A DNA stretch of 64,000 nt from Escherichia coli (GTDB lineage Bacteria; Pseudomonadota; Gammaproteobacteria; Enterobacterales; Enterobacteriaceae), in NCBI RefSeq assembly GCF_013315695.1, contig NZ_CP054353.1; one strand, given 5' to 3'. This document shows positions 8,556 through 36,649 of this stretch, in pieces. Numbering within the stretch: the stretch's first letter is position 1; each line of letters opens with the position of its first letter. Under the pieces are notes generated by a model, which saw only the letters and a list, made by a program, of their open reading frames with translations, ran no database searches and was not told where the DNA came from. A program made the translations under genes and the position numbers.

Positions 8556-8635
8556 TATCCACCGGCATGGCTGCGCGCCGTGCCGGTTCCTTCTTCCTTG
8601 CCGTCACTCTTTGAAGACGGATTCTGGAGTTTACG

Positions 8636-10096: not shown

Positions 10097-10232
10097 CTAA
10101 CTGATTACCCTACAGACTTACTGGTCAATCAAACTGATATTTGGTTGACCAGTTTTCGTTTTTTTGCCCACCTGTACGTGCCAACTTCCAGTGCTAATGG
10201 TATAGTTTGAGATTAACGGGGGCCGTAAAATT

Positions 10233-10278
10233 GCCCGTTGTAGGCCGGATAAGGCGTTCACGCCGCATCCGGCAAAAA
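10233..10278. repeat. REP element
   Basis: gcccgttgtaggccggataaggcgttcacgccgcatccggca; canonical REP palindrome between uxuB and uxuR. Confidence 0.65.
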
Positions 10279-10310
10279 TTTGATTAACCGCACCTAACGG
10301 ACACAACACC

Positions 10311-11084
10311 ATGAAATCTGCCACCTCTGCGCAAAGACCTTACCAGGAAGTCGGGGCGATGATCCGCGATCTGATCATAAAGACGCCGTACAACCCTGGC
10401 GAACGGCTGCCGCCGGAGCGTGAAATTGCAGAAATGCTTGATGTCACGCGGACGGTGGTACGTGAAGCGCTGATCATGCTGGAGATCAAAGGGCTGGTGG
10501 AAGTGCGTCGGGGTGCCGGTATCTATGTTCTTGATAGCTCAGGCAGCCAGAACACAGACGGTCCGGATGCCAACGTCTGCAATGATGCCGGTCCTTTTGA
10601 GCTGTTACAGGCGCGTCAGTTACTGGAAAGTAACATCGCGGAATTTGCCGCCCTGCAGGCTACCCGCGAAGATATCGTCAAAATGCGTCAGGCATTGCAA
10701 CTGGAAGAGCGTGAACTGGCTTCCAGCGCGCCGGGCAGCAGCGAAAGTGGTGACATGCAATTCCATCTCGCCATTGCCGAAGCGACGCATAACAGCATGC
10801 TGGTGGAGCTGTTCCGTCAGTCCTGGCAGTGGCGGGAAAACAATCCGATGTGGATCCAGTTGCACAGCCATCTGGATGACAGCCTGTATCGCAAAGAGTG
10901 GTTGGGCGATCACAAACAGATCCTCGCCGCGTTAATCAAAAAAGATGCCCGAGCGGCGAAGCTGGCAATGTGGCAGCATCTGGAAAACGTTAAGCAACGT
11001 CTGCTGGAATTCTCGAACGTTGACGATATTTATTTTGACGGCTATCTGTTTGATTCATGGCCGCTGGATAAAGTCGACGCCTGA
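10311..11084 (+). CDS. uxuR: GntR/FadR-family repressor UxuR
   Basis: 257-aa ORF recognised as UxuR. Confidence 0.93.
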   Translation: MKSATSAQRPYQEVGAMIRDLIIKTPYNPGERLPPEREIAEMLDVTRTVVREALIMLEIKGLVEVRRGAGIYVLDSSGSQNTDGPDANVCNDAGPFELLQARQLLESNIAEFAALQATREDIVKMRQALQLEERELASSAPGSSESGDMQFHLAIAEATHNSMLVELFRQSWQWRENNPMWIQLHSHLDDSLYRKEWLGDHKQILAALIKKDARAAKLAMWQHLENVKQRLLEFSNVDDIYFDGYLFDSWPLDKVDA

Positions 11085-11095
11085 CTTATTATAAT

Positions 11096-11130
11096 AAGCG
11101 CAAGGGTAAACGTTCCTTGCGCTTTCTTAA
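11096..11130. terminator. Putative bidirectional rho-independent terminator (uxuR / yjiC convergent)
   Basis: Stem aagcgcaagg / ccttgcgctt with a 9-nt loop, then tctt. Confidence 0.5.
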
Positions 11131-11258
11131 ATTAAGAAGTCGCAATGAGTATTACTTTGTAAATTGCAGGGTATTGTTTAGCTATCTGTATAACCTGAAC
11201 GTGAGTACTCATTCTTCTCAGTGGCTATTTACCAATATAATTCGGTAATGACTCCAAC

Positions 11259-11762
11259 TTATTGATAGTGTTTTATGTTCAGATAATGCCCGATGACTTT
11301 GTCATGCAGCTCCACCGATTTTGAGAACGACAGCGACTTCCGTCCCAGCCGTGCCAGGTGCTGCCTCAGATTCAGGTTATGCCGCTCAATTCGCTGCGTA
11401 TATCGCTTGCTGATTACGTGCAGCTTTCCCTTCAGGCGGGATTCATACAGCGGCCAGCCATCCGTCATCCATATCACCACGTCAAAGGGTGACAGCAGGC
11501 TCATAAGACGCCCCAGCGTCGCCATAGTGCGTTCACCGAATACGTGCGCAACAACCGTCTTCCGGAGCCTGTCATACGCGTAAAACAGCCAGCGCTGGCG
11601 CGATTTAGCCCCGACATAGCCCCACTGTTCGTCCATTTCCGCGCAGACGATGACGTCACTGCCCGGCTGTATGCGCGAGGTTACCGACTGCGGCCTGAGT
11701 TTTTTAAGTGACGTAAAATCGTGTTGAGGCCAACGCCCATAATGCGGGCTGTTGCCCGGCAT
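11259..11762 (-). CDS. insB: IS1 InsB (transposase made as an InsAB fusion by -1 frameshift)
   Basis: 167-aa ORF overlapping insA in the -1 frame. Confidence 0.9.
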
Positions 11763-11956
11763 CCAACGCCATTCATGGCCATATCAATGATTTTCTGGTG
11801 CGTACCGGGTTGAGAAGCGGTGTAAGTGAACTGCAGTTGCCATGTTTTACGGCAGTGAGAGCAGAGATAGCGCTGATGTCCGGCGGTGCTTTTGCCGTTA
11901 CGCACCACTCCGTCAGTAGCTGAACAGGAGGGACAGCTGATAGAAACAGAAGCCAC
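11681..11956 (-). CDS. insA: IS1 InsA
   Basis: 91-aa zinc-finger ORF at the IRL side of IS1. Confidence 0.9.
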
Positions 11957-12011
11957 TGGAGCACCTCAAAAACACCATCATACGCTAAATCAGTAAGTTG
12001 GCAGCATCACC

Positions 12012-12418
12012 ATATAATTCCATTCACCATTTTTTAATTCAAACAGCTCTGGAAGAGATGACGGTTGCAGAGTCATACGTTTGAGTGGTGCATTTTCATC
12101 ACCCGGGATAACTTTATATCCCATTTTTGCATGGATCTCCGCTGTACCGGGATAGGCTTCTATACCAATTATTGGGTCATTACCCAACTCAATATTAGCA
12201 TTAAGTAATGCGGCAAGGGCGAATCCGGAAGAGTTTGCCACCCCTGAGACAGTCATTATCTGATCAATATAGATATCAATCCTTGGCTGCTCATTGGTCC
12301 ATCTTTTTGCCTGAGAAGTTGGAAGAGTTGAAATATATCCTATCGTGGTTCCGGCGTAACCTGGAACATTGCAGCCAGGGCCTAATGTTATTTCATGAAC
12401 TGTATAGTCCTCAACAGG
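12012..12418 (-). pseudogene. yjiC: yjiC 3' fragment (about codons 142-273), cut by IS1 at both ends
   Basis: Open frame on the minus strand across the whole interval; joins in frame with the 5' fragment at 26432-26854 through the shared 9-mer; natural stop would lie at 11225-11227 beyond the IS1; assignment to yjiC is by synteny (between uxuR and iraD) and by the reconstructed length of 276 codons. Confidence 0.75.
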
Positions 12419-12433
12419 GGTAATGACTCCAAC

Positions 12434-12937
12434 TTACTGATAGTGTTTTATGTTCAGATAATGCCCGATGACCTTGTCATGCAGCTCCACCGATTTTGAG
12501 AACGACAGTGACTTCCGTCCCAGCCTTGCCAGATGTTGTCTCAGATTCAGATTATGTCGCTCAATGCGCTGAGTGTAACGCTTGCTGATAACGTGCAGCT
12601 TTCCCTTCAGGCGTGATTCATACAGCGGCCAGCCATCCGTCATCCATACCACGACCTCAAAGGCCGACAGCAGGCTCAGAAGACGCTCCAGTGTGGCCAG
12701 AGTGCGTTCACCGAAGACGTGCGCCACAACCGTCCTCCGTATCCTGTCATACGCGTAAAACAGCCAGCGCTGACGTGATTTAGCACCGACGTAGCCCCAC
12801 TGTTCGTCCATTTCAGCGCAGACAATCACATCACTGCCCGGTTGTATGCGCGAGGTTACCGACTGCGGCCTGAGTTTTTTAAGTGACGTAAAACCGTGTT
12901 GAGGCCAACGCCCATAATGCGTGCACTGGCGCGACAT
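12434..12937 (-). CDS. insB: IS1 InsB (variant)
   Basis: 167-aa ORF. Confidence 0.9.
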
Positions 12938-13131
12938 CCGACGCCATTCATGGCCATATCAATGATTTTCTGGTGCTTACCGGGCTGAGAGGCGGTATAA
13001 GTGAACTGTAGTTGCCATGTTTTACGGCAATGAGAGCAGAGATAGCGCTGATGTCCGGCAGTGCTTTTGCCGTTACGCACCACGCCTTCAGTAGCGGAGC
13101 AGGAAGGACATCTGATGGAAATGGAAGCCAC
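12856..13131 (-). CDS. insA: IS1 InsA (variant)
   Basis: 91-aa ORF, about 90% identical to the standard copy. Confidence 0.9.
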
Positions 13132-13456
13132 GCAAGCACCTTAAAATCACCATCATACACTAAATCAGTAAGTTGGCAGCATTACCAAATTTTAATTACA
13201 CTTAAGGTGTATATTTTCTATGCAAGCCATCAATTAAAGAGGTGTAATGTGCTGATGACTATTTGTAATCGTTATACATTCTGACCTGGAGTCAGAAGGT
13301 ATTTCTCTGTCGGTGTGTTCACAGGCAGTGTGGTTGATTACATGAAATTCAGTACATTTGCAGTCTCGTTGCCCTTCTCGCCTGCCTTTCGTCATTACCG
13401 ACGGTATTGAATTTCGTTTTGCCCGTTGGGGTTCTCCGGACAAGGAGTTGTTTGTT

Positions 13457-14689
13457 ATGCCACGTTTTTTTGCCCGCCATGCCGCCACGCTGTTTTTCCC
13501 GATGGCGTTGATTTTGTATGATTTTGCCGCGTACCTGTCGACGGACCTGATTCAGCCGGGGATCATTAATGTGGTCCGTGATTTTAATGCCGATGTCAGT
13601 CTGGCCCCGGCAGCCGTCAGTCTCTATCTCGCGGGCGGTATGGCGTTACAGTGGCTGCTGGGGCCGCTTTCCGACAGGATTGGCCGCAGGCCGGTGCTGA
13701 TTACCGGGGCGCTAATATTTACCCTTGCCTGCGCTGCGACAATGTTCACAACGTCTATGACACAGTTTCTTATCGCGCGTGCAATTCAGGGCACCAGTAT
13801 CTGTTTTATTGCCACCGTTGGTTATGTCACGGTGCAGGAGGCGTTCGGCCAGACAAAAGGGATCAGGTTGATGGCGATTATCACCTCCATCGTACTGATT
13901 GCGCCGATTATCGGCCCGCTTTCCGGCGCAGCTCTGATGCACTTTGTACACTGGAAAGTCCTTTTTGCCATCATTGCGATTATGGGTTTTATCTCATTTG
14001 TTGGCTTACTGCTGGCGATGCCAGAGACGGTGAAGCGCGGCGCGGTTTCATTTAGCGCCAAAAGCGTCTTGCGCGATTTTCGTAATGTCTTTTGCAATCG
14101 GCTGTTCCTCTTTGGTGCAGCAACCATCTCTTTAAGCTATATCCCAATGATGAGCTGGGTGGCTGTCTCGCCGGTGATCCTGATTGACGCAGGCGGCTTA
14201 ACGACCTCGCAGTTCGCCTGGACACAGGTTCCGGTATTCGGCGCGGTGATTGTCGCGAATGCCATCGTGGCGCGTTTCGTTAAAGATCCGACCGAACCGC
14301 GCTTTATCTGGCGTGCCGTACCCATTCAACTGGTTGGCCTCGCGCTGTTGATTATCGGCAATCTGCTGTCACCGCACGTCTGGCTGTGGTCGGTGCTGGG
14401 CACCAGTCTGTATGCTTTCGGGATTGGTTTGATTATCCCGACCTTATTCCGCTTTACGCTGTTTTCCAATAAATTACCGAAAGGGACCGTCTCCGCATCG
14501 CTGAATATGGTGATCCTGATGGTGATGTCTGTCTCGGTCGAAATCGGCCGCTGGCTGTGGTTTAACGGCGGTCGCTTGCCGTTTCATCTGTTAGCCGTCG
14601 TGGCGGGCCTTATCGTCGTTTTCACCCTGGCGGGATTGCTTAATCGCGTGCGCCAACATCAGGCTGCCGAGCTGGCGGAGGAGCGGTGA
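13457..14689 (+). CDS. mdtM: Multidrug efflux MFS transporter MdtM
   Basis: 410 aa from [13 protein letters not shown]; recognised MdtM; the track ORF extends 33 codons upstream. Confidence 0.9.
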
Positions 14690-14729
14690 TTTTTGCGCGA
14701 TCCTGCCGTCAGGCTCTATTCTTAACATT

Positions 14730-16010
14730 ATGAATAAACTCATTGAACTCAGACGCGCCAAAATGTTGGCGCTCTCTTTACTGCTTATCGCCGCTGCTAC
14801 CTTTGTCGTTACGCTGTTTTTGCCACCCAATTTTTGGGTGAGCGGTGTGAAGGCGATTGCTGAAGCGGCGATGGTCGGCGCGCTGGCAGACTGGTTTGCG
14901 GTGGTGGCGCTGTTTCGCCGCGTGCCGATTCCGATCATTTCTCGTCATACGGCGATTATCCCGCGTAATAAAGACCGGATTGGCGAAAATCTCGGTCAGT
15001 TCGTGCAGGAAAAATTTCTCGATACCCAATCGCTGGTGGCATTGATTCGACGTCACGAACCGGTGTTGTTGATTGGCAACTGGTTTAGTCAGCCAGAAAA
15101 CGCCCGCCGCGTTGGTCAGCATCTGTTGCAGATCATGAGTGGTTTTCTTGAACTGACCGATGATGCGCGTATTCAGCGCCTGCTTAAGCGCGCAGTCCAT
15201 CGGGCGATTGATAAGATCGATCTTTCCGGCACCAGTGCGTTGATGCTGGAGAGTATGACCAAAAACGATCGTCATCAGGTGCTGCTGGATACGCTGATCG
15301 CGCAGTTGATTGCTCTTCTCCAGCGCGATAAATCGCGCAAGTTTATTGCCCAGCAAATTGTTCGCTGGCTGGAGAGCGAGCATCCGCTGAAAGCCAAAAT
15401 TTTGCCTACTGAATGGCTGGGCGAACATAGCGCGGAGTTGGTTTCTGACGCGGTGAATTCTTTGCTTGATGATATCAGCCGCGATCGTGTACATCAGATC
15501 CGCCATGCGTTTGATCGCGCCACTTTTGCCCTGATCGACAAGTTGAAAAACGATCCGGAAATGGCAGCGCGAGCCGATGCCGTAAAAAGTTATCTGAAAG
15601 AAGATGAAGCTTTTAACCGCTATCTCAGTGAATTGTGGGGGGATTTACGGGAATGGCTGAAAGCGGATATCGACAGTGAAGATTCTCGTGTGAAAGAACG
15701 TATCGCGCGGGCGGGTCAATGGTTTGGCGAAACGTTAATTGCCGATGATGCCTTGCGGGCGTCGTTAAATGGTCACCTGGAACAAGCCGCGCACCGCGTC
15801 GCGCCTGAGTTTTCCGCATTCCTGACGCGCCACATCAGCGATACGGTAAAAAGCTGGGATGCGCGGGATATGTCGCGGCAAATAGAGTTAAATATCGGCA
15901 AAGATCTGCAGTTTATCCGTGTCAACGGTACGCTGGTCGGCGGTTGTATTGGGCTAATTTTGTATTTGCTGTCGCAGCTCCCGGCCTTATTCCCCCTCAG
16001 CAATTTTTAG
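14730..16010 (+). CDS. yjiN: DUF445 inner-membrane protein YjiN
   Basis: 426-aa ORF; sequence and synteny. Confidence 0.85.
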
Positions 16011-16125
16011 AAATCCATGAAAAACTAAGTGGCTAACCGCGAGAGAGATCAAATAAACCACACTAAAAGAATGGTAATAATGTGGCCTCTTTTCATTATC
16101 TCCCGTGGTACGGGGAAGGAAAATC

Positions 16126-18054
<1,929 letters not shown>

Positions 18055-18225
18055 AAGAGTATCTGTTTTTATTTCACTCCACGGTCGGCGTCATACAAAC
18101 CCGCAAGGCGTTGCAGGCAGCGGGCATGACTTTTCGCGTCAGCGATATTCCCCGTGATTTACGCGGCGGCTGCGGGTTATGCATTTGGCTGACCTGTCCG
18201 CCTGGCGAGGAAATTCAATGGGTGA

Positions 18226-19233
<1,008 letters not shown>

Positions 19234-19300
19234 CAGGCTGGCATGTTTCACCTTTTTGTTATTAACTTGTTAACAACAAAAATGACAAACAAGGTTAAAC

Positions 19301-20479
19301 ATGCCTTCGCCCTCGCATCCCGTAGAACGCTTTTCTTTCAGCACCGCGCTTTTCGGGATGCTGGTTCTGACCTTAGGTATGGGTTTAGGCCGCTTCCTTT
19401 ATACGCCTATGTTGCCCGTCATGATGGCGGAAGGATCGTTTTCATTTAGCCAGCTCTCGTGGATTGCCAGCGGCAACTATGCGGGGTATCTGGCTGGCAG
19501 TCTGCTATTTTCGTTTGGCGCATTTCACCAGCCATCGCGCCTGCGCCCATTTCTGTTGGCTTCTGCCCTAGCGAGCGGGTTGTTGATCCTCGCAATGGCA
19601 TGGTTGCTGCCATTTATTCTGGTGTTATTGATTCGCGTCCTGGCGGGTGTCGCCAGCGCCGGTATGCTGATTTTTGGTTCGACGCTGATTATGCAGCACA
19701 CGCGCCATCCTTTTGTGCTGGCAGCTTTGTTTTCTGGCGTTGGCATTGGCATCGCACTGGGCAATGAATATGTTCTGGCAGGCCTGCATTTTGACCTCTC
19801 CTCGCAAACGTTATGGCAAGGCGCCGGGGCGCTTTCTGGCATGATGCTGATTGCACTTACGCTTTTAATGCCCTCGAAAAAACACGCCATCACACCAATG
19901 CCATTGGCAAAAACGGAGCAACAGATAATGAGCTGGTGGTTACTGGCTATTCTGTACGGCCTGGCGGGATTTGGTTATATCATCGTCGCGACTTACCTGC
20001 CGCTCATGGCGAAAGATGCAGGCTCACCATTGTTAACCGCCCATCTCTGGACGTTAGTCGGCTTATCAATTGTGCCTGGTTGCTTTGGCTGGCTATGGGC
20101 AGCAAAACGTTGGGGGGCTTTGCCCTGCCTGACGGCGAATTTGCTGGTGCAGGCTATCTGTGTGCTGCTTACTCTCGCCAGCGACTCGCCTCTCTTGCTT
20201 ATCATCAGCAGTCTTGGTTTTGGCGGTACCTTTATGGGCACGACATCTCTGGTGATGACTATCGCCCGCCAACTGAGCGTACCGGGAAATCTCAATCTTT
20301 TAGGCTTTGTGACGCTCATTTACGGCATTGGACAAATCCTCGGCCCGGCGCTGACCAGTATGCTCGGCAATGGAACATCGGCGCTTGCCGGCGCCACTCT
20401 CTGCGGCGCGGCGGCGTTGTTTATTGCTGCGCTTATCAGCACAGTACAATTATTTAAGCTGCAAGTGGTCACTTCATGA
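19301..20479 (+). CDS. yjiJ: MFS-type transporter YjiJ
   Basis: 392-aa polytopic ORF; synteny. Confidence 0.85.
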
Positions 20480-20491
20480 GGAGTGTTTCCC

Positions 20492-21046
20492 TTACCACTC
20501 AAGAAATTCGACCGCAACCGTTGATGTCAGCCAGACCCCGTTTTCCGCTTGCCAGAAAGGGAGGCCTCGTTTCGCCATTTCCTGTGCTTTGACGGTTAAA
20601 ATAACCGGCGATCCGTGTCTTGCTCCCACTTTGCGTGCCGTTGCTTCATCAGCAGAGAGATGTACGTAGTGACGCTCACCTGCAATCAGCCCCTGTTTTT
20701 TTATCTCGTCAAGGAAACGGCTTGCCGTACCGTGGTAGAGAAACTGTGGCGGTGTTTTTTCGGCAAAGGAAATAGCGACCTGCGAAGTCGAATGCCCCTG
20801 AACCGCGCGGATGCACCTACCATCACTGGAATAACTAAAACGCTTTTTATCGCTGGTGGCAACCACGGTATCCAGCAATGCACGGGTTAACCGCTTGCCC
20901 GCTTTTTGGGCACAAAGTATGAGCTTATCGATATCCGCCCATCCTTCACGGTCCAGTACGATACCAATCGCCTCCGGTTTGTGTCGGAGGACAAAACTTA
21001 AAAACTTGCTCGTATCCGCCAGCTCTTTTTCGTTGTACTTTGCCAT
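20492..21046 (-). CDS. kptA: RNA 2'-phosphotransferase KptA (Tpt1 family)
   Basis: 184-aa ORF recognised as KptA. Confidence 0.88.
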
Positions 21047-21295
21047 CGCGTTTTCGTCCCTGGATTATCTGTTTTTTATTTACTATGTCATTGTCACTGG
21101 GTTTATGAATTTTCTGCAACTCAATCCTGCGTAGAACCTTTTCCACACAGCGTAATTTTACCGCTATGCAAAAAACGCATAGTCAGAAACATACTTGCAT
21201 TTTCCCCATACCCACATGGCTGATAAGGTTTTTCAGCTCCAGGAATTTTCCTGGCTCAAGCAACACACAAACACAAAAAAACAATGGGGATTGTT

Positions 21296-21979
21296 ATGAC
21301 ACAACAAGGGGATGCTGTAGCCGGGGAGCTGGCGACAGAAAAAGTGGGCATTAAAGGGTATCTGGCTTTTTTTCTCACCATAATCTTTTTTTCCGGTGTT
21401 TTTTCCGGGACAGACAGTTGGTGGCGCGTTTTTGATTTTTCCGTTCTGAACGGATCGTTTGGGCAACTGCCTGGTGCGAACGGAGCCACCACCTCGTTTC
21501 GCGGCGCGGGTGGCGCGGGGGCTAAAGATGGCTTTCTCTTTGCGCTGGAGCTGGCACCGTCAGTCATTCTCTCTCTGGGGATTATTTCAATTACCGATGG
21601 TCTTGGCGGATTACGCGCCGCGCAGCAGTTAATGACGCCAGTGCTAAAACCGTTGTTGGGCATTCCAGGGATCTGCTCGCTGGCGCTGATCGCTAACCTG
21701 CAAAACACCGATGCCGCCGCAGGTATGACCAAAGAGCTGGCGCAGGAAGGTGAAATTACCGAACGCGATAAAGTGATTTTCGCCGCATATCAAACCAGCG
21801 GTAGCGCCATTATCACCAACTACTTCTCTTCCGGCGTCGCGGTGTTTGCCTTTCTGGGCACGTCCGTAATCGTACCTTTAGCAGTCATCCTGGTGTTTAA
21901 ATTTGTCGGAGCCAACATTTTGCGCGTCTGGCTTAACTTCGAAGAACGTCGCAACCCAACGCAAGGAGCGCAAGCATGA
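21296..21979 (+). CDS. yjiH: Inner-membrane protein YjiH
   Basis: 227 aa from MTQQGDAV; overlaps the yjiG start. Confidence 0.85.
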   Translation: MTQQGDAVAGELATEKVGIKGYLAFFLTIIFFSGVFSGTDSWWRVFDFSVLNGSFGQLPGANGATTSFRGAGGAGAKDGFLFALELAPSVILSLGIISITDGLGGLRAAQQLMTPVLKPLLGIPGICSLALIANLQNTDAAAGMTKELAQEGEITERDKVIFAAYQTSGSAIITNYFSSGVAVFAFLGTSVIVPLAVILVFKFVGANILRVWLNFEERRNPTQGAQA

Positions 21980-22437
21980 CAACTCAGGTCCGCAAAAACG
22001 TCATGGATATGTTTATCGATGGTGCGCGCCGTGGCTTTACTATCGCCACGACCAACCTGCTGCCAAACGTGGTGATGGCGTTTGTCATCATTCAGGCGCT
22101 GAAAATTACCGGCCTGCTCGACTGGGTGGGGCATATCTGTGAACCCGTAATGGCGCTGTGGGGATTACCCGGTGAAGCGGCAACCGTCCTTTTAGCCGCA
22201 TTAATGAGTATGGGTGGCGCAGTCGGTGTTGCCGCCAGTCTGGCAACCGCTGGCGCATTAACCGGTCACGATGTCACCGTTTTACTGCCCGCGATGTATT
22301 TAATGGGCAACCCGGTGCAAAATGTCGGTCGCTGCCTGGGGACAGCCGAAGTGAATGCCAAATATTACCCGCATATCATTACGGTCTGCGTGATTAACGC
22401 ATTGCTGTCGATCTGGGTTATGCAGCTTATTGTTTAA
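21976..22437 (+). CDS. yjiG: Inner-membrane protein YjiG
   Basis: 153-aa ORF; synteny. Confidence 0.85.
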   Translation: MTTQVRKNVMDMFIDGARRGFTIATTNLLPNVVMAFVIIQALKITGLLDWVGHICEPVMALWGLPGEAATVLLAALMSMGGAVGVAASLATAGALTGHDVTVLLPAMYLMGNPVQNVGRCLGTAEVNAKYYPHIITVCVINALLSIWVMQLIV

Positions 22438-22449
22438 CAAGGAGTTACC

Positions 22450-23622
22450 ATGATTGATTATACCGCAGCCGGTTTTACCCTGCTGCAGGGAGCGCATTTG
22501 TATGCGCCGGAAGATCGGGGAATTTGCGATGTCCTCGTCGCTAACGGCAAAATTATCGCCGTTGCCAGTAATATCCCTTCTGACATTGTACCGGACTGCA
22601 CGGTTGTCGATCTCAGCGGGCAGATCCTCTGCCCAGGTTTTATTGATCAACACGTCCATTTGATTGGCGGTGGCGGCGAAGCAGGTCCCACGACGCGCAC
22701 GCCGGAAGTGGCGTTAAGTCGTCTGACGGAAGCAGGCGTCACGTCAGTGGTTGGTCTGCTGGGCACCGACTCTATCTCTCGCCACCCGGAATCCCTGCTC
22801 GCCAAGACCCGTGCGCTCAATGAAGAAGGCATCAGCGCCTGGATGCTGACCGGCGCTTATCATGTCCCTTCCCGCACTATTACGGGTTCCGTGGAAAAAG
22901 ACGTGGCGATTATCGATCGCGTGATTGGCGTGAAATGCGCCATCTCTGATCACCGTTCTGCCGCACCGGACGTTTATCACCTGGCTAATATGGCGGCGGA
23001 ATCCCGCGTTGGCGGTTTGCTCGGCGGTAAACCTGGCGTCACCGTGTTCCACATGGGCGACAGCAAAAAGGCGTTACAGCCTGTCTATGACCTGCTGGAA
23101 AACTGCGATGTGCCGATTAGCAAGTTGCTGCCGACCCACGTTAACCGCAACGTTCCGTTGTTTGAGCAGGCGCTGGAGTTCGCGCGCAAAGGCGGCACCA
23201 TCGATATCACCAGCAGCATTGACGAACCAGTCGCCCCTGCCGAAGGTATTGCCCGCGCCGTTCAGGCGGGTATTCCGCTGGCACGCGTCACCCTCAGCTC
23301 CGACGGCAACGGTAGCCAGCCGTTCTTCGATGACGAAGGGAATTTAACCCATATCGGTGTTGCCGGTTTTGAAACGTTGCTGGAAACCGTGCAGGTGCTG
23401 GTCAAAGATTATGATTTCAGTATCAGCGATGCCCTGCGCCCGCTCACCAGTAGCGTAGCCGGTTTCCTTAACCTGAGCGGGAAAGGCGAAATTCTGCCAG
23501 GCAATGACGCAGACTTACTGGTCATGACGCCAGAATTACGTATTGAGCAGGTATACGCTCGCGGCAAGCTGATGGTCAAAGACGGCAAAGCCTGCGTGAA
23601 AGGAACGTTTGAAACGGCATAA
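22450..23622 (+). CDS. iadA: Isoaspartyl dipeptidase IadA
   Basis: 390-aa ORF with an amidohydrolase-type metal-binding motif (HVHLIGGGG); recognised IadA. Confidence 0.9.
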   Translation: MIDYTAAGFTLLQGAHLYAPEDRGICDVLVANGKIIAVASNIPSDIVPDCTVVDLSGQILCPGFIDQHVHLIGGGGEAGPTTRTPEVALSRLTEAGVTSVVGLLGTDSISRHPESLLAKTRALNEEGISAWMLTGAYHVPSRTITGSVEKDVAIIDRVIGVKCAISDHRSAAPDVYHLANMAAESRVGGLLGGKPGVTVFHMGDSKKALQPVYDLLENCDVPISKLLPTHVNRNVPLFEQALEFARKGGTIDITSSIDEPVAPAEGIARAVQAGIPLARVTLSSDGNGSQPFFDDEGNLTHIGVAGFETLLETVQVLVKDYDFSISDALRPLTSSVAGFLNLSGKGEILPGNDADLLVMTPELRIEQVYARGKLMVKDGKACVKGTFETA

Positions 23623-23686
23623 ACGGTTGTCAGCCGCCCGAATGGACGTAGAATGCCCGCAAGGGCGGCTGACAGAGTAAAACGTA

Positions 23687-24598
23687 ATGGATGACTGTGG
23701 TGCGGTTTTGCATAATATTGAAACTAAATGGCTTTATGATTTTCTGACCCTGGAAAAATGCCGCAATTTTTCCCAGGCAGCAGTCAGTCGCAACGTCTCG
23801 CAACCGGCATTCAGCCGCCGCATCCGTGCGCTGGAACAGGCGATTGGCGTTGAATTGTTTAACCGCCAGGTGACGCCGCTGCAACTCTCGGAACAAGGTA
23901 AAATATTCCATTCGCAGATCCGCCATCTGTTGCAACAGTTAGAGAGCAACCTTGCAGAACTCCGTGGTGGCAGCGATTACGCGCAACGCAAAATTAAAAT
24001 AGCCGCTGCACACTCTCTTTCCCTCGGGCTGTTACCGTCCATTATCAGCCAGATGCCGCCGCTCTTTACCTGGGCAATTGAAGCTATTGATGTCGATGAA
24101 GCGGTCGATAAACTGCGTGAAGGGCAAAGTGACTGTATTTTTTCCTTTCACGACGAAGATTTGCTGGAAGCGCCGTTTGACCACATTCGCTTATTTGAAT
24201 CTCAATTGTTCCCCGTTTGCGCCAGTGACGAACACGGAGAAGCACTTTTTAACCTCGCGCAGCCACACTTTCCGTTACTGAATTACAGCCGCAACTCCTA
24301 CATGGGGCGATTGATTAATCGCACCCTGACGCGCCACAGTGAGTTAAGTTTCAGCACCTTTTTTGTCTCTTCGATGAGCGAGCTTTTAAAGCAGGTTGCC
24401 CTCGACGGCTGTGGGATTGCCTGGCTACCGGAATACGCCATCCAACAAGAAATTCGCAGCGGGCAGCTCGTTGTACTGAATCGGGACGAACTGGTGATCC
24501 CGATTCAGGCCTATGCATACCGGATGAATACCCGCATGAATCCAGTTGCCGAACGCTTCTGGCGTGAACTGCGCGAGCTGGAGATTGTGCTTAGCTGA
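23687..24598 (+). CDS. hypT: LysR-family hypochlorite-responsive regulator HypT (YjiE)
   Basis: 303-aa LysR-type ORF with N-terminal HTH; synteny. Confidence 0.88.
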
Positions 24599-24983
24599 CA
24601 TTCTCCAGCGTCGCACTGCGCCAACCGCCATTATCCCAGACCAGATCAAACGTTAGCGATTCATCGTCGTGATACAGCATTATCTCAAGGCTGATCGCCA
24701 GAGTGTGGCAGTACGCTTCTTTCAAATTAACCTGCAACGCCGCAATCCGTGGCTCATGAAATAACAGTGCAGAACGCAGCTGACGGCAATACCAGCTCTG
24801 GAGATGTTTGTCGCTCGGGTTATGCACTTGCCACTCGGGCATGCCTGAAACAAGTAATGACGGTAATGCCGAATGAGGAGAATTAAAAAGAGTGAGGAGA
24901 TCGCTGCATACTGATTTACGCAGCGGTGACGTTTTATTGCCTGAAATTTCAGGTAAAACAGCCTGAAGTGATTGGCGCATCAT
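24591..24983 (-). CDS. iraD: Anti-adaptor protein IraD (RpoS stabiliser)
   Basis: 130 aa from MMRQSLQAV; recognised IraD. Confidence 0.88.
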
Positions 24984-25455
24984 TTTGCGCACTCCTGACG
25001 TTTAGCAACATATGCGGCTTGCCCTGAACACCGGGCACCACTGTATTGATGCTCATTTTCCATAGCCATTCCCTTTTGTTCATTACATCCATGTCAGTCT
25101 GAGACAGGCCTGAATCCTGTCAGCAAAGTATAAAACCTTACTTGCCTATGAATATCTACTGACTTTTCAGGAAAAAAGTCATGATTTGATAAAAATCATC
25201 AAACTCAAAAAAAAACCGCTAGTATATTCTGAATATTCCGAATAGTTACGTAGATGAAAATACTTGTCACCACCGCTACTTAATTCCGGTGGGAAATTAT
25301 TTATTTCCGCATAATCAGCCATGTATTATTTAAAACAATTAGTTTGTAAATAATATAAATTGATAACATATCAAATACATCAAAAATACCATTCACAGGC
25401 ATTATTAATATAGACATCAATATAGCAACATCAAATTCCAGGTAATGACTCCAAC

Positions 25456-25959
25456 TTATTGATAGTGTTTTATGTTCAGATAATGCCCGATGACTTTGTC
25501 ATGCAGCTCCACCGATTTTGAGAACGACAGCGACTTCCGTCCCAGCCGTGCCAGGTGCTGCCTCAGATTCAGGTTATGCCGCTCAATTCGCTGCGTATAT
25601 CGCTTGCTGATTACGTGCAGCTTTCCCTTCAGGCGGGATTCATACAGCGGCCAGCCATCCGTCATCCATATCACCACGTCAAAGGGTGACAGCAGGCTCA
25701 TAAGACGCCCCAGCGTCGCCATAGTGCGTTCACCGAATACGTGCGCAACAACCGTCTTCCGGAGCCTGTCATACGCGTAAAACAGCCAGCGCTGGCGCGA
25801 TTTAGCCCCGACATAGCCCCACTGTTCGTCCATTTCCGCGCAGACGATGACGTCACTGCCCGGCTGTATGCGCGAGGTTACCGACTGCGGCCTGAGTTTT
25901 TTAAGTGACGTAAAATCGTGTTGAGGCCAACGCCCATAATGCGGGCTGTTGCCCGGCAT
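25456..25959 (-). CDS. insB: IS1 InsB
   Basis: 167-aa ORF. Confidence 0.9.
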
Positions 25960-26153
25960 CCAACGCCATTCATGGCCATATCAATGATTTTCTGGTGCGT
26001 ACCGGGTTGAGAAGCGGTGTAAGTGAACTGCAGTTGCCATGTTTTACGGCAGTGAGAGCAGAGATAGCGCTGATGTCCGGCGGTGCTTTTGCCGTTACGC
26101 ACCACCCCGTCAGTAGCTGAACAGGAGGGACAGCTGATAGAAACAGAAGCCAC
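25878..26153 (-). CDS. insA: IS1 InsA
   Basis: 91-aa ORF. Confidence 0.9.
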
Positions 26154-26431
26154 TGGAGCACCTCAAAAACACCATCATACACTAAATCAGTAAGTTGGCA
26201 GCATCACCCAAATTCCAATTAGTAATAAGATATGCTTTTAAATTGCATGCAAATAATTTTAAATGAGCGTTTTTTGATACTTTAGAGTGTTTCCCACCAT
26301 TTAATATCACTGTGTAGAGTTGATATCACTACAACAGAAACATGCATGTCATTTGTTTACTTCTCTTTTTACTACAGAAAAATTTATCTATTTTTCTAAG
26401 CATCAGTGAAATACTCATAAAGGTAACTATT

Positions 26432-26854
26432 ATGTCTATGCCATTAAGCAATGCCCTTCAGAGTCAAATTATTACAGATAATCACTTCCTTCATCATCCA
26501 AAAGTCGACAGTGAGTTAACACGTAAACATGAACGTGGACGCATGGATACGGAAAATATCTATCTTCCGCCTCTTGCTCGTGGCAATAACCATAATTACG
26601 ATGGAAAAAGCGTTGTCGAAATTAGAAAACTTGATATTAGTAAAGAGTCCTGGCCATTTAATTATGTGACAGAAACATGCAGAGAATTCAATGGTATTAC
26701 AACAACAGGACGTATGCTCTATCGAAACTTGAAAATCACCTCAGCTTTAGACGAAATATATGGTGGTATATGTAAAAAGGCGCATGCTGCCACAGAGTTA
26801 GCAGAAGGATTACGGCTAAATTTATTTATGAAAAGCCCTTTCGATCCTGTTGAG
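26432..26854 (+). pseudogene. yjiC: yjiC 5' fragment (codons 1-141), truncated by IS1; separated from its 3' half by the inversion
   Basis: ORF starting MSMPLSNALQ with an upstream aaaggt RBS-like motif; reading frame runs directly into the IS1 inverted repeat at 26855; last three codons (cct gtt gag) are the 9-bp target sequence. Confidence 0.75.
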
Positions 26855-26909
26855 GGTAATGCTGCCAACTTACTGATTTAGTGTATGATGGTGATTTTAA
26901 GGTGCTTGC

Positions 26910-27185
26910 GTGGCTTCCATTTCCATCAGATGTCCTTCCTGCTCCGCTACTGAAGGCGTGGTGCGTAACGGCAAAAGCACTGCCGGACATCAGCGCTATC
27001 TCTGCTCTCATTGCCGTAAAACATGGCAACTACAGTTCACTTATACCGCCTCTCAGCCCGGTAAGCACCAGAAAATCATTGATATGGCCATGAATGGCGT
27101 CGGATGTCGCGCCAGTGCACGCATTATGGGCGTTGGCCTCAACACGGTTTTACGTCACTTAAAAAACTCAGGCCGCAGTCGGTAA
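26910..27185 (+). CDS. insA: IS1 InsA (variant)
   Basis: 91-aa ORF. Confidence 0.9.
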
Positions 27186-27607
27186 CCTCGCGCATACAAC
27201 CGGGCAGTGATGTGATTGTCTGCGCTGAAATGGACGAACAGTGGGGCTACGTCGGTGCTAAATCACGTCAGCGCTGGCTGTTTTACGCGTATGACAGGAT
27301 ACGGAGGACGGTTGTGGCGCACGTCTTCGGTGAACGCACTCTGGCCACACTGGAGCGTCTTCTGAGCCTGCTGTCGGCCTTTGAGGTCGTGGTATGGATG
27401 ACGGATGGCTGGCCGCTGTATGAATCACGCCTGAAGGGAAAGCTGCACGTTATCAGCAAGCGTTACACTCAGCGCATTGAGCGACATAATCTGAATCTGA
27501 GACAACATCTGGCAAGGCTGGGACGGAAGTCACTGTCGTTCTCAAAATCGGTGGAGCTGCATGACAAGGTCATCGGGCATTATCTGAACATAAAACACTA
27601 TCAGTAA
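27104..27607 (+). CDS. insB: IS1 InsB (variant)
   Basis: 167-aa ORF; TTAAAAAAC frameshift motif at 27149-27157. Confidence 0.9.
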
Positions 27608-27805
27608 GTTGGAGTCATTACCCGACAGCGAGGTGTTTAGTGTGCCATGTCAGGCGAGAAATTCTATTGGATGAATCAAGTCCAACTTACTCATTGTCAA
27701 TTTCATGGTTGATTATTCGAAACGTGATGCTATTTCCAACATCAACGCTATAATTGCAGAATAATTGTAGATACATTTTTGTATATACAATTAGGGATGG
27801 CAATT

Positions 27806-28082
27806 ATGCCAATGGAGTTTGAATGGGATGAAAACAAGGCCAAAAGTAATCGGGTGAAACATGGCATCCGCTTTGAAGATGCGGTGTTATTGTTTGATGA
27901 TCCACAACATTTGTCACAGCAAGAACGCATAGAAAACGGTGAGTATCGCTGGCAGACATTACGGCATCGTGGTTATTCTGGTTGCGCATACCATCCGTTT
28001 CGAAAGCGGAAATGAAATTATTCGAATCATCAGTGCACGAAAAGCAGATCGTAAAGAGAGGAATCGCTATGAGCATGGTTAA
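27806..28082 (+). pseudogene. BrnT-like (DUF497) ribonuclease toxin gene, apparently frameshifted
   Basis: N-terminal MPMEFEWDENKAKSNRVKHGIRFEDAVLLFDDPQ in one frame ends after QTL; the conserved C-terminal IRIISARKA motif continues in another frame from about 27963 to the stop at 28080-28082; agggatgg upstream of the ATG. Confidence 0.7.
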
Positions 28083-28371
28083 ACATAAACGAGGGACCTC
28101 CTCTACACTCGATGTGCAGCATGAGGCCGAACTGAAGGCGCTGGCGAATAAATCCGACGAAGATATTGATTACAGTGATATCCCACCTTCCAGCGATGAG
28201 CAATGGTCTAACGCCGAACGCGGTAAGTTTTATCGGCCATTGAAAACTCAGGCTTCGGTGCGTATTGATGCTGATGTGATGGAATGGTTGAAGCGACCAG
28301 GTAAAGGCTATCAAACTCGCCTGAACGCAATTTTACGTGAAGCGATGCTGCGCGATCAGAACAAAAAATAA
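28069..28371 (+). CDS. BrnA-like antitoxin (ribbon-helix-helix family)
   Basis: About 100 aa from MSMVKHKRG; C-terminal GKGYQTRLNAILREAM typical of BrnA; start overlaps the toxin stop by 14 bp. Confidence 0.7.
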   Translation: MSMVKHKRGTSSTLDVQHEAELKALANKSDEDIDYSDIPPSSDEQWSNAERGKFYRPLKTQASVRIDADVMEWLKRPGKGYQTRLNAILREAMLRDQNKK

Positions 28372-28374
28372 TTC

Positions 28375-28400
28375 AGGCCGCCACATGGCGGCCATCATCC
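28375..28400. terminator. Putative bidirectional terminator hairpin between brnA-like gene and yjiA
   Basis: Palindrome ggccgccacatggcggcc between convergent stops. Confidence 0.4.
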
Positions 28401-28404
28401 AAAA

Positions 28405-29361
28405 TTACTTCCTCAACCCCGCAAACGCTGCCCGAATCTCTTCCTCCGGCAACTGAATCCCGATAAACACCATCGTGCTATGCGGTTTTTCATCGCCCCA
28501 CGGGCGGTCCCAGTCGGCGCTGTAGAGGCGTTGGACGCCCTGGAATAGCAGGCGGTTAGGTTCGCCGTCAATCCATAGCATCCCTTTGTAACGCAGTAGT
28601 TTATCCGCCGACTCCAGCAGCAGGTTTTCCATCACCCGGGAAACTTCGCTGATATCTACCGGGTAATCCAGTTCCACCACAATCGACGAAATATCGTTTT
28701 GTTTGTCCGTGATAAAGTGGAAACGCGGTTTGGTGCTGACGACGTTTTCTTCCAGCATAAAACCGTTGGTGTTGAACAGAAGGCCCAGGTCGATATCGCC
28801 GTGGGTAACGGTGTAGACCGGTGCGCGGGCGTTGATGCGCGCCAGGCGTTCACGCAGTTTCTCTGCTTCGCCTGCGACGTCGGTTTTCGTCAGCAGAATA
28901 CGGTCGGCGTAGCCAACCTGGGACTGGGCGATGGTGAACTGGTTCATCTGCTCATCGGCATGTACCGCATCCACCAGCGCAATCACGCCGTCCAGCAGGT
29001 AGCGCTGGCATAAAATCTCATGGGAGAAAAAGGTCTGAATAATCGGGCCGGGATCGGCCATGCCGGTGCATTCAATGACCAGACGGTCGAACTGAATATT
29101 GCCCTTGTCGAGATTATCCAGCAGGTCGAGTAGTGCGTCTTCCAGCTCGTTGGAGCGCGAACAGCAGATGCAGCCGTTGGTCAGCGTTTTGATCTGCGTG
29201 GCGCGGTCGCCAATCAGTTGATCATCAACGGAGACTTCGCCGAATTCGTTTTCAATCACGGCAATCTTGTAGCCGTGTTGTTCGTTAAGAATATGGCGCA
29301 GCAGGGTGGTTTTGCCCGCGCCTAAAAAACCGGTGAGTAGGGTAACTGCAATCGGGTTCAT
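28405..29361 (-). CDS. yjiA: CobW/COG0523-family GTPase YjiA
   Basis: 318 aa from MNPIAVTLLTGFLGAGKTTLL (P-loop); recognised YjiA. Confidence 0.9.
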   Translation of the reverse strand: MNPIAVTLLTGFLGAGKTTLLRHILNEQHGYKIAVIENEFGEVSVDDQLIGDRATQIKTLTNGCICCSRSNELEDALLDLLDNLDKGNIQFDRLVIECTGMADPGPIIQTFFSHEILCQRYLLDGVIALVDAVHADEQMNQFTIAQSQVGYADRILLTKTDVAGEAEKLRERLARINARAPVYTVTHGDIDLGLLFNTNGFMLEENVVSTKPRFHFITDKQNDISSIVVELDYPVDISEVSRVMENLLLESADKLLRYKGMLWIDGEPNRLLFQGVQRLYSADWDRPWGDEKPHSTMVFIGIQLPEEEIRAAFAGLRK

Positions 29362-29371
29362 GCTCTCTCCA

Positions 29372-29575
29372 TTAACAACAGCGCATACCGCCTTTACCAT
29401 CGCCGCCGTAGCGTGCGTTCTGGCGTTCGCGGAAGAATTCTTCATAGCTCATGTACGGCTTGTCGGGATGGTTGGTCTTCATATGCTCGACGTAGTTGTC
29501 GTAGTCTGGAATGCCAATCAACATCTTCGCCGCCTGGCCGAGATATTTTTTTGCCTGTCCTAAGTTACCAAACAT
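29372..29575 (-). CDS. yjiX: DUF466 small protein YjiX
   Basis: 67-aa ORF immediately downstream of btsT; recognised sequence. Confidence 0.85.
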
Positions 29576-29624
29576 AGTTCACTCTGATAAGAACAAAGCC
29601 CCGCCGAAGCGGGGCTAAACACGG

Positions 29625-31775
29625 TTAGTGGTGCGAAGAGATCTTCACGCCGCCTTCCGGGATTGGAACGTACGGTGTTTCTTTGTCAGTACGTTTGTCG
29701 CTGTTACGCACCGCAAGCCAGGTTTTGAAACCGTAGAAGATGATGCTGTACACCACAATCAGGAACAGAATACTCAGACCTGCGTTGGTGTAGTTGTTCA
29801 CAACGATGTGGTTCATGTTGGCAATCTGCTGCGTCGTCAGGTCAGTACCGTTAGCAATCTTCTCTTTGTACTGGCTTGCCATGTAGAAGAAGCCTTCCAT
29901 CTGCGGGTTGGTGCTGAACAGTTTCAGGCCCAGCGCCCAGGTGGTGCAGATAAGCAGCCATACAGCCGGAACAACAGTTACCCAGATGTATTGGGTGCGC
30001 TTCATCTTAATCAGCACAACGGTGCCCAGTACCAGCGCTACGGCTGCCAGCATCTGGTTGGAAATACCGAACAGCGGCCACAGGCTCTTAACGCCGCCCA
30101 GCGGATCGACCACGCCCTGATACAGCAGGTAGCCCCACAGACCCACACAGCCCGCAGTACCGATGATACCGGCAACCAGAGAGTCGGTTTTTTTCAGGAA
30201 CGGGATGAAGTTACCCAGCAGGTCTTGCAGCATAAAGCGGCCAGAACGGGTACCCGCATCCAGCGCGGTCAGGATGAACAGTGCTTCGAACAGAATACCG
30301 AAGTGATACCAGAAGCCCATGTCAGCCATCGGCAGCACTTTGTGGAACACGTGAGCGATACCTACCGCCAGCGTCGGCGCACCACCTGCACGGTTCAGGA
30401 CAGAAGGCTCACCAATGTCTTTCGCGGTTTGCAGGATCTGCTCTGGCGAAATCACGAAGCCCCAAGAGCTGACGGTCGCTGCCGCGTGTGCGGTAACGTC
30501 TTTCAGCTGCGCCATGATGATCGGCGCGTTCTCGCCCCCCATTTCATGCAGGTTAGGCATGGTGATGCCAAGGCCAGCAGGCGGGGTGTTCATCGCGAAG
30601 TAAAGACCCGGTTCGATGATGGACGCAGCAACCAGCGCCATAATCGCCACGAAGGACTCCATCAGCATTGCGCCGTAGCCGATGAAACGCGCGTCGGTTT
30701 CATTAGCCAGCAGTTTTGGCGTCGTACCGGAAGAGATCAGCGCGTGGAAGCCAGATACCGCACCACAGGCGATGGTGATGAACAGGAACGGGAACAGAGC
30801 GCCTTTCCACAGCGGGCCAGTACCGTCAATGTACTGGGTCATGGCAGGCATTTTCAGTTCCGGGTTCAGCACCACGATACCCAGCGCCAGGCCGACGATA
30901 ACGCCGATTTTCAGGAAGGTTGCCAGATAGTCGCGCGGTGCGAGGATCAGCCACACTGGCAGCAGTGCGGAAACAAACGCATAGCCAATCAGCGCGAAGG
31001 TAATGGTGGTGTCTTTAAAGGTCAGTGCCGGACCCCAGTACGGATCGTGAGCAATCACGCCACCGAAGTAGATAGAGGCAACCAGCAGCACGATACCAAT
31101 GACAGAGACTTCACCCACACGCCCCGGACGAATAAAGCGCATGTAGATACCCATAAACAGCGCAATCGGTACGGTTGAGCAAACGGTGAAGACACCCCAC
31201 GGACTTTCGGCCAGGGCTTTAACCACAATCAGCGCCAGGACGGCGAGGATGATGATCATGATTAAGAAACAGCCAAACAGCGCGATAGTCCCCGGTACTG
31301 GTCCCATCTCTTCTTTGATCATCTCACCAAGAGATGCGCCATTACGGCGAGAGGAGATAAACAGCACCATAAAGTCCTGAACCGCACCGGCCAGCACGAC
31401 CCCCGCCAGCAGCCACAGCGTGCCAGGCAGGTAGCCCATCTGCGCGGCGAGAACCGGACCCACCAGCGGACCAGCACCGGCGATAGCGGCGAAGTGGTGA
31501 CCAAACAACACGTAACGGTTGGTCGGAACGTAGTTCAGACCGTCGTTGTTAATAACCGCAGGCGTCGCGCGCGTGGGGTCGAGTTTCATCACCTTCTGGG
31601 CGATGTACAGACTGTAGTAGCGATACGCCACCAGATACACCGACACAGAGGCGACCACGATCCACAGGGCGCTGACGTGCTCCCCCCGACGTAATGCAAC
31701 TACCGCGAGGCAGAATGCACCGATGATTCCGAGAATCACCCAGGGTATGTGCTTGAATATCTTTTTAGTATCCAT
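29625..31775 (-). CDS. btsT: Pyruvate/H+ symporter BtsT (YjiY, CstA family)
   Basis: 716 aa from MDTKKIFKHIPW; recognised sequence. Confidence 0.92.
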   Translation of the reverse strand: MDTKKIFKHIPWVILGIIGAFCLAVVALRRGEHVSALWIVVASVSVYLVAYRYYSLYIAQKVMKLDPTRATPAVINNDGLNYVPTNRYVLFGHHFAAIAGAGPLVGPVLAAQMGYLPGTLWLLAGVVLAGAVQDFMVLFISSRRNGASLGEMIKEEMGPVPGTIALFGCFLIMIIILAVLALIVVKALAESPWGVFTVCSTVPIALFMGIYMRFIRPGRVGEVSVIGIVLLVASIYFGGVIAHDPYWGPALTFKDTTITFALIGYAFVSALLPVWLILAPRDYLATFLKIGVIVGLALGIVVLNPELKMPAMTQYIDGTGPLWKGALFPFLFITIACGAVSGFHALISSGTTPKLLANETDARFIGYGAMLMESFVAIMALVAASIIEPGLYFAMNTPPAGLGITMPNLHEMGGENAPIIMAQLKDVTAHAAATVSSWGFVISPEQILQTAKDIGEPSVLNRAGGAPTLAVGIAHVFHKVLPMADMGFWYHFGILFEALFILTALDAGTRSGRFMLQDLLGNFIPFLKKTDSLVAGIIGTAGCVGLWGYLLYQGVVDPLGGVKSLWPLFGISNQMLAAVALVLGTVVLIKMKRTQYIWVTVVPAVWLLICTTWALGLKLFSTNPQMEGFFYMASQYKEKIANGTDLTTQQIANMNHIVVNNYTNAGLSILFLIVVYSIIFYGFKTWLAVRNSDKRTDKETPYVPIPEGGVKISSHH

Positions 31776-35223: not shown

Positions 35224-35325
35224 GCCGGACTCCTATATTTATAATTTTAATTGTTTACGTAATTGTGCATTACGCAAGGTTGACATTAACGGCAGGTTAA
35301 AGTTTTAGGACTTTACTACCGCTCA

Positions 35326-36520
<1,195 letters not shown>

Positions 36521-36649
36521 CTTGTGAGTCCATTAAAACCCGATTTAAAACATTTTTATGCGTGTGTTTTCACAAAACAGATTTTCCGTTCCGCTGCCAT
36601 TTTTCATTTTCATTGATATCTAAGGCAACAAAAAATGGAGAGCCGAATC

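Follow-up and report, generated by a model that had tools for sequence, protein, structure and literature searches.

The stretch of DNA analysed here, 64,000 nucleotides of the Escherichia coli chromosome (contig NZ_CP054353.1 of assembly GCF_013315695.1; hereafter called the window), carries between uxuR and yjiA a block of native genes, running from mdtM to ytiC, which stands in reversed order relative to E. coli K-12 and is enclosed by two inverted copies of an insertion sequence (IS) of the IS1 family. A first-pass annotation, made from the letters alone, had proposed that this block was inverted in connection with an IS1 insertion into yjiC. In the present study the arrangement was compared with K-12 strain MG1655 and with a survey of 5,426 complete E. 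coli genomes, with regard to gene order, IS junctions, the state before the inversion and the route by which the inversion arose.

Gene order at the locus

The annotation of MG1655 gives the order uxuR(+), yjiC(-), ytiC/ytiD/idlP/iraD(+), hypT, iadA, yjiG, yjiH(-) and kptA(+), continued by yjiJ, yjiK, ytiA, yjiL, yjiM, yjiN and mdtM(-), the hsd/mcr/mrr region and yjiA(-). In the window the genes from ytiC to mdtM are found in mirror image (Table 1), and the inversion has left 11 of them on the plus strand and five on the minus strand. BLAST against MG1655 aligned window positions 8000-11243, 12009-12418 and all from 28405 onward on the plus strand, and positions 13186-25440 and 26209-26855 on the minus strand; the two pieces of yjiC overlap in this alignment by 9-10 bp of target duplication. 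With 97.4% identity to K-12 the block lies at its native locus, and a dot plot against K-12 places the inverted diagonal exactly between the two IS copies. The K-12 orientation stated in the first-pass annotation matches the one annotated for MG1655, and the gene list given there for the block was right in order and strands, lacking only the small genes ytiA, idlP, ytiD and ytiC. Beyond the block (27623-28404) the K-12 hsd/mcr/mrr restriction cluster is absent, and a brnT/brnA toxin-antitoxin pair is found in its place.

The replication origin of K-12 lies near 3.93 Mb, and the locus is taken here to lie near 4.56 Mb on the K-12 map, on the clockwise replichore. By this map most genes of the block would have switched from a head-on to a co-directional orientation with replication. 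GC skew amounts to +0.015 in the block versus +0.03 in the flanks, values which are noisy in so short a segment. The immediate upstream context of mdtM is unchanged, because the junction between mdtM and the IS is the ancestral one.

IS1 copies in the window

Mapping of end motifs together with a repeat search located four IS1 elements in the region, designated copies A to D (Table 1). Copies B and D, which bound the block, show 0 mismatches in 768 positions, and the inverted-repeat arms formed by them (12418-13186 and 26855-27623) are 100% complementary at a distance of 13,668 nucleotides. They had been described as a protein-identical inverted pair; positions and spacing were correct throughout, and the identity extends beyond the protein to the nucleotide level. 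Between copies A and C two mismatches were counted, and 69-70 between either of these and copies B and D. The first-pass annotation had rightly placed a variant IS1 pair at the breakpoints, and had overlooked copies A and C, of which the latter lies inside the block.

Both of these overlooked copies are simple insertions. Copy A, flanked by the 9-bp direct repeat atataattc (11235-11243 and 12012-12020), is situated in the last codons of yjiC and is also present in the genomes EC6622, EC22, AF3 and MSB1_4I; it had no part in the inversion. Copy C, with the direct repeat caaattcca (25432-25440 and 26209-26217), is separated by 23 bp from the start of ytiC, on its upstream side, and falls within the long region preceding iraD, whose control it might affect. 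It is lacking in AF3 and MSB1_4I, the sister genomes treated below, and is a later, recent and strain-specific insertion. Because it is absent from both sister genomes, the segment originally inverted measured 12,891 bp and not 13,668 bp.

Copies B and D are the IS1F iso-form of the IS1 family, which had not been recognised in the first-pass annotation. They differ from IS1F of MG1655 at 5 of 768 positions (763/768 identical) and share its terminal repeats, imperfect inverted repeats of about 23 bp (GGTAATG...) that were found by motif. In both copies InsA comprises 91 amino acids, an A6C slippery site is located at nucleotide 307, and the InsAB' fusion frame is open to its end, with insB' in the -1 frame after insA, as expected of the IS1 family. 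The target duplication of 9 bp, split between the two copies, lies within the 8-9 bp of IS1.

Junctions and the split target duplication

A direct repeat was sought at the flanks of copies B and D and neither was found to have one: ctcaacagg precedes copy B and aaattttaa follows it, and copy D stands between cctgttgag and cgacagcga. The 9-mers that precede the two copies are the exact reverse complement of each other, an agreement to be expected by chance for a given pair at about 4^-9, and in these flanks the comparison agrees with what the first-pass annotation had reported. Read in the orientation of the element, with its left (IRL) and right (IRR) terminal inverted repeats, copy D has the form CCTGTTGAG-IRL...IRR-CGACAGCGA, with brnT on the right, and copy B the form TAAAATTT-IRL...IRR-CCTGTTGAG, with the upstream region of mdtM on the left. 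Each copy hence possesses one old junction, belonging to the donor, and one new junction with yjiC, and the target repeats are inverted relative to each other, one within and one outside the inverted segment.

The duplicated 9-mer CCTGTTGAG represents codons 139-141 of yjiC (P-V-E), across which the gene halves had been claimed to rejoin in frame. Joined in this way, with one 9-mer removed, they indeed encode a protein of 280 amino acids that is identical at 280/280 positions to the intact YjiC of EC22, a DUF2686 product. The C-terminus is altered by copy A (from ...NYIGK to ...NYMVMLPTY), the last three codons having gone already before the inversion. IS1 adjacent to an intact yjiC was recorded in at most 217 genomes, and most but not all of the matches listed show the copy-A arrangement.

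Apart from this, yjiC (AT-rich, with 35-42% GC) is a repeated target of IS elements. Seven other genomes carry IS1 elsewhere in the gene, and in ET729 it is split by two inverted copies of ISEc68 (IS5 family), with the gntP-uxuR segment inverted (19136-31114 of the compared segment). IS1-family elements near yjiC in 2406_w1_hybrid and DETEC-E480 were rejected as unrelated simple insertions of an IS1 variant with 32 mismatches, in genomes that have kept the hsd region.

Table 1. Positions of IS1 copies, target repeats, gene fragments and genes at the inverted locus of the window.
Feature	Position	Strand	Remarks
IS1 copy A	11244-12011	minus	IS1A-type; simple insertion
yjiC 3' fragment	11990-12418	minus	codons 139-280; stop codon within copy A
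Outer target-duplication copy ctcaacagg	12410-12418		adjoins IRR end of copy B
IS1 copy B	12419-13186	minus	IS1F-type, 768 bp; new IRR junction (yjiC), ancestral IRL junction (mdtM upstream)
Inverted block	13187-26854		13,668 bp between copies B and D, with copy C and yjiC 5' fragment
Block genes mdtM (13457-14689), yjiN, yjiM, yjiL, ytiA, yjiK, yjiJ, yjiH, yjiG, iadA, hypT		plus	
Block genes kptA, iraD, idlP, ytiD, ytiC		minus	
IS1 copy C	25441-26208	minus	IS1A-type, within inverted block; simple insertion
yjiC 5' fragment	26432-26854	plus	codons 1-141
Inner target-duplication copy cctgttgag	26846-26854		adjoins IRL end of copy D
IS1 copy D	26855-27622	plus	IS1F-type, 768 bp, donor position; ancestral IRR junction (brnT), new IRL junction (yjiC)
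brnT (frameshifted) and brnA	27806-28371	plus	outer flank of donor
yjiA	28405-29361	minus	next to brnT/brnA

Sister genomes and reliability of the assembly

Coverage of at least 80% of window positions 8000-31000 on one strand was reached by only three genomes. AF3, from a blood culture in the UK, and MSB1_4I, from a rectal swab in Australia, show the same inversion with the same junctions and both IS1F copies, and are 99.9-100% identical to the window, which is the third member of this clone, set apart by its extra IS1. Identical inverted repeats that exceed the length of short reads are a classic source of assembly errors, and an artefact might be suspected in which the K-12 order is true and the unique flanks were mis-joined across the identical 768-bp repeats. 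However, a mis-join would still require an IS1F in yjiC, which no un-inverted genome possesses, and a misassembly is unlikely because the same inversion, with identical order and junctions, recurs in two complete genomes that come from different countries and were sequenced and assembled independently. We therefore regard an artefact as very improbable. Nor was any relative found among the genomes compared that displays this gene order without IS1 at the breakpoints, which the first-pass annotation had named as evidence that would speak against its reading.

Donor element and pre-inversion state

The donor site was searched for with a query of 1,000 bp in which the mdtM-side flank was fused directly to the brnT-side flank. 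This query was covered at one place in 441 of the 5,426 genomes, corresponding to mdtM-IS1-brnT in K-12 gene order; an IS1 is placed between the flanks because the two pieces span about 1,768-1,779 bp in all 60 matches listed. Of the single junctions, that between IRR and brnT (cgacagcga) is common to 1,112 of the 5,426 genomes and the K-12-like one between IRL and mdtM to 450. About nine genomes (450 versus 441) thus hold the mdtM-side junction without an adjacent brnT, and AF3 and MSB1_4I were identified among them. Since its two flanks enclose a single IS1 in so many other genomes, the donor is regarded as an old and widely inherited insertion, which had gone unnoticed in the first-pass annotation. 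The ancestral interval between mdtM and yjiA contains only IS1F and brnT/brnA, and no direct repeat flanks the donor itself; a deletion or replacement next to it, perhaps associated with IS1, may have taken place earlier.

The genome EC6622 represents the exact pre-inversion state. Its order is uxuR, IS1A (copy A), intact yjiC, ytiC to mdtM in K-12 orientation, IS1F, frameshifted brnT, brnA and yjiA, and the transposase protein of its IS1F has the same accession as that of the window lineage. For direct comparison the inversion was reversed in silico, by removing copy B with one 9-mer and copy C with its repeat and by reverse-complementing the block; the resulting sequence and EC6622 gave a single ungapped alignment of 21,604 bp with 99.79% identity.

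This arrangement also bears on the reading that the block with its two IS1 copies was inserted as a unit, as a composite transposon. An inverted IS1 pair around a block of genes is the matching anatomy, but the outer flanks differ (ctcaacagg versus cgacagcga) and form no direct repeat, the cargo is chromosomal DNA in its original place, with one half of yjiC inside the unit and the other outside, and the EC6622 arrangement refutes such an insertion, so that we consider it hardly conceivable. An invertase switch was rejected on account of the flanks and the native gene content.

Further inversions from the same donor

In two other genomes, which had not been recognised in the first-pass annotation, inversions proceed from the same donor position. 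EC22 has a second IS1F in yjiH; the inverted segment here runs over 8.6 kb from mdtM to yjiH', with a likewise split 9-mer, CTACTTCTC. FAM21845 has a second IS1F beside opgB; here the segment from brnT to lgoD, on the opposite side of the donor, is inverted, and the 8-bp sequence GGAACGTG is split. The inner flank differs in both genomes, being a fragment of a dienelactone hydrolase gene. By junction search in the survey each of these new junctions is unique to its own genome, and each of the two genomes is inverted. The new copy is considered to derive from the local donor, because both copies in each genome share the private nucleotide polymorphisms of their lineage. Altogether five genomes carry a new junction originating from the donor, by three independent events, and all are inverted.

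At nucleotide 542 of the element the window copies have TGG, whereas K-12 IS1F, EC22 and FAM21845 have TGA, an in-frame change from Trp to a stop in insB, which in EC22 and FAM21845 is found in both members of the duplicated pair (compared-segment coordinates of the TGA-bearing copies: EC22 11669-12436 and 21051-21818; FAM21845 10566-11333 and 21385-22152; K-12 1473-2240). These copies were duplicated nonetheless, which would point to help in trans from copies of the IS1A or IS1B type or to read-through of the stop. Copy B of MSB1_4I shows a 14-bp deletion of nucleotides 542-555. Nucleotide 190 is C in the ancestral donors EC6622 and LSN03-016011/A and T in both copies of the window; in AF3 and MSB1_4I copy B shows C and copy D shows T. 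This pattern suggests either that gene conversion has taken place between the two inverted elements or that the repeat was smoothed in the course of assembly.

Tentatively, one old and fixed IS1F, which borders the site of the missing hsd/mcr/mrr cluster, may act as a recurrent generator of local inversions in natural E. coli. At least three inversions, independent of one another and 8-13 kb in size, would then be due to it, to one side or the other, and the TGA-bearing copies would have been mobilised in trans by IS1A-type elements or by read-through. We hold this to be a possible reading which falls somewhat short of being the probable one.

Route of formation

Structure, ancestral state and independence of the assemblies are matters of observation, and from them we infer that the inversion formed in a single step. 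In the ancestor, uxuR, yjiC and iraD to mdtM would have stood in K-12 order, followed by one IS1F-type element and brnT-brnA-yjiA. The resident IS1F would have undergone intramolecular replicative transposition, in which both ends of the IS attacked the 9-bp target CCTGTTGAG in yjiC, situated on the same chromosome at a distance of about 12.9 kb; the strands would have been joined in the configuration from which an inversion results and not a deletion. Replication through the strand-transfer intermediate would then have duplicated the IS together with the 9-bp target and flipped the interval between donor and target. As product, two identical inverted IS1F copies would be expected, each with one donor flank and one yjiC flank, with the target copies inverted, one outside and one inside the block, with yjiC split and with the genes from mdtM to ytiC reversed.

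This one-step transposition is probably the best explanation of the locus. The first-pass annotation had named the same mechanism, or equivalently recombination between inverted copies, and its proposal is supported by the junctions, the donor arrangement in 441 genomes and the alignment with EC6622. Intramolecular replicative transposition with inversion is conventionally recognised by matched target repeats that stand inverted on separate copies of the IS (PMC4471558), and all IS1 insertion mutants examined within the E. coli chromosome retained the donor copy, which was read by the authors as replicative transposition (PMC12428005).

Several points weigh against it. IS1F of K-12 was reported to be nearly inactive in laboratory assays (PMC12428005), and simple insertions with direct repeats, such as copies A and C, are the commoner outcome of IS1 activity in this window. 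Moreover, the final structure is formally the same as that left by a simple insertion and a RecA-mediated crossover, two routes which sequence alone cannot separate, and the pattern at nucleotide 190 fits either of them and suggests past homologous exchange between the copies.

In two steps, a copy of the resident IS1F would have entered yjiC by simple insertion, inverted relative to its source and flanked by a direct 9-bp repeat, and a RecA-dependent crossover between the 768-bp copies would subsequently have flipped the block. The end product would equal the observed structure, simple IS1 insertions are common here, and two perfect inverted repeats of 768 bp at a distance of 13 kb offer good substrates for recombination, which would have acted on these copies if the pattern at nucleotide 190 reflects gene conversion in the window strain. 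The difference between copies B (C) and D (T) in AF3 and MSB1_4I could also mean that a distinct copy was inserted and that the crossover took place 3' of nucleotide 190. However, the predicted intermediate, un-inverted and with two copies, was absent among the 5,426 genomes at the target sites in yjiC, in yjiH (EC22) and at opgB (FAM21845), even if absence from a genome sample is no proof of absence. These sites were searched with short junction queries, which replaced a reconstructed yjiC3'-IS1-yjiC5' query whose 217 matches were confounded, the pieces having been joined regardless of their order. As a single piece, the yjiC::IS1F junction is confined in the survey to two inverted genomes, AF3 and MSB1_4I. 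With frequent and reversible flipping a mixture of both orientations would be expected, and with rare flipping a predominance of the un-inverted intermediate; yet all five genomes with a new junction are inverted. Because three independent events are seen only in the inverted state, and because the new copies stem from the local donor, one step is favoured, and the sequence of insertion and crossover is judged unlikely though possible.

Other variation in the window

Outside the inverted region two further differences were observed. At 46740-47184 the window has four tandem tRNA-Leu(CAG) genes, where the near-identical AF3 has two, FAM21845 three and K-12, presumably, three in the corresponding array; this is copy-number variation of a leuVPQ-type array. 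At about 35200-36600, in common with AF3, an IS5-like ISKpn26 lies between lgoT and lgoD at the position of lgoR in EC6622; this regulator gene was apparently lost from the window by replacement or deletion.

Significance and comparison with known systems

The locus offers a natural IS-driven inversion in which ancestor, donor, target and product are all visible in public genomes, and it illustrates how a fixed IS copy repeatedly reshapes its own neighbourhood. As a consequence of the event yjiC is inactivated, and the genes from mdtM to ytiC, among them those of the efflux pump MdtM, of IraD and of HypT, are reversed relative to replication. Bracketed by inverted IS1 copies, the block could be returned to its former orientation by recombination, or might in principle be mobilised as a composite unit. 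Should the reading of a recurrent inversion generator hold, 'dead-looking' IS1F copies would be mobilised in nature.

The mechanism itself is well known and no new one is described here; what is new is the locus, IS1F as the actor and the recurrence from one fixed donor. A literature search found no published description of this inversion or of the IS1F/brnT junction. Older work by Turlan and Chandler (1995) reportedly dealt with deletions and inversions mediated by IS1, and inversions by homologous recombination between inverted IS copies have been seen in experimental evolution of E. coli. Inversions made by recombination have the same end product, bounded by inverted IS copies, but they require that two copies be present beforehand, each flanked by a direct repeat, whereas one of the copies described here exists only in inverted genomes.

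In length, sequence and terminal repeats the window copies resemble IS1F of K-12 (MG1655 4518472-4519239; 768 bp). They differ from it by the TGG codon and an intact InsAB', and by their site, which is the mdtM/brnT boundary and not the fec locus.

The closest parallel is found in IS26 and Tn4401 of clinical plasmids, where intramolecular replicative transposition 'in trans' was reported to result in inversion (He et al. 2015, PMC4471558). As in those cases, two inverted copies of one IS with inverted, matched target repeats enclose DNA that is itself inverted, and an ancestor with a single copy can be deduced, which here was actually found. Unlike them, the present case is chromosomal, it involves an IS1F-type element with a 9-bp target instead of IS26 with 8 bp, and its ancestral donor is itself devoid of a direct repeat.

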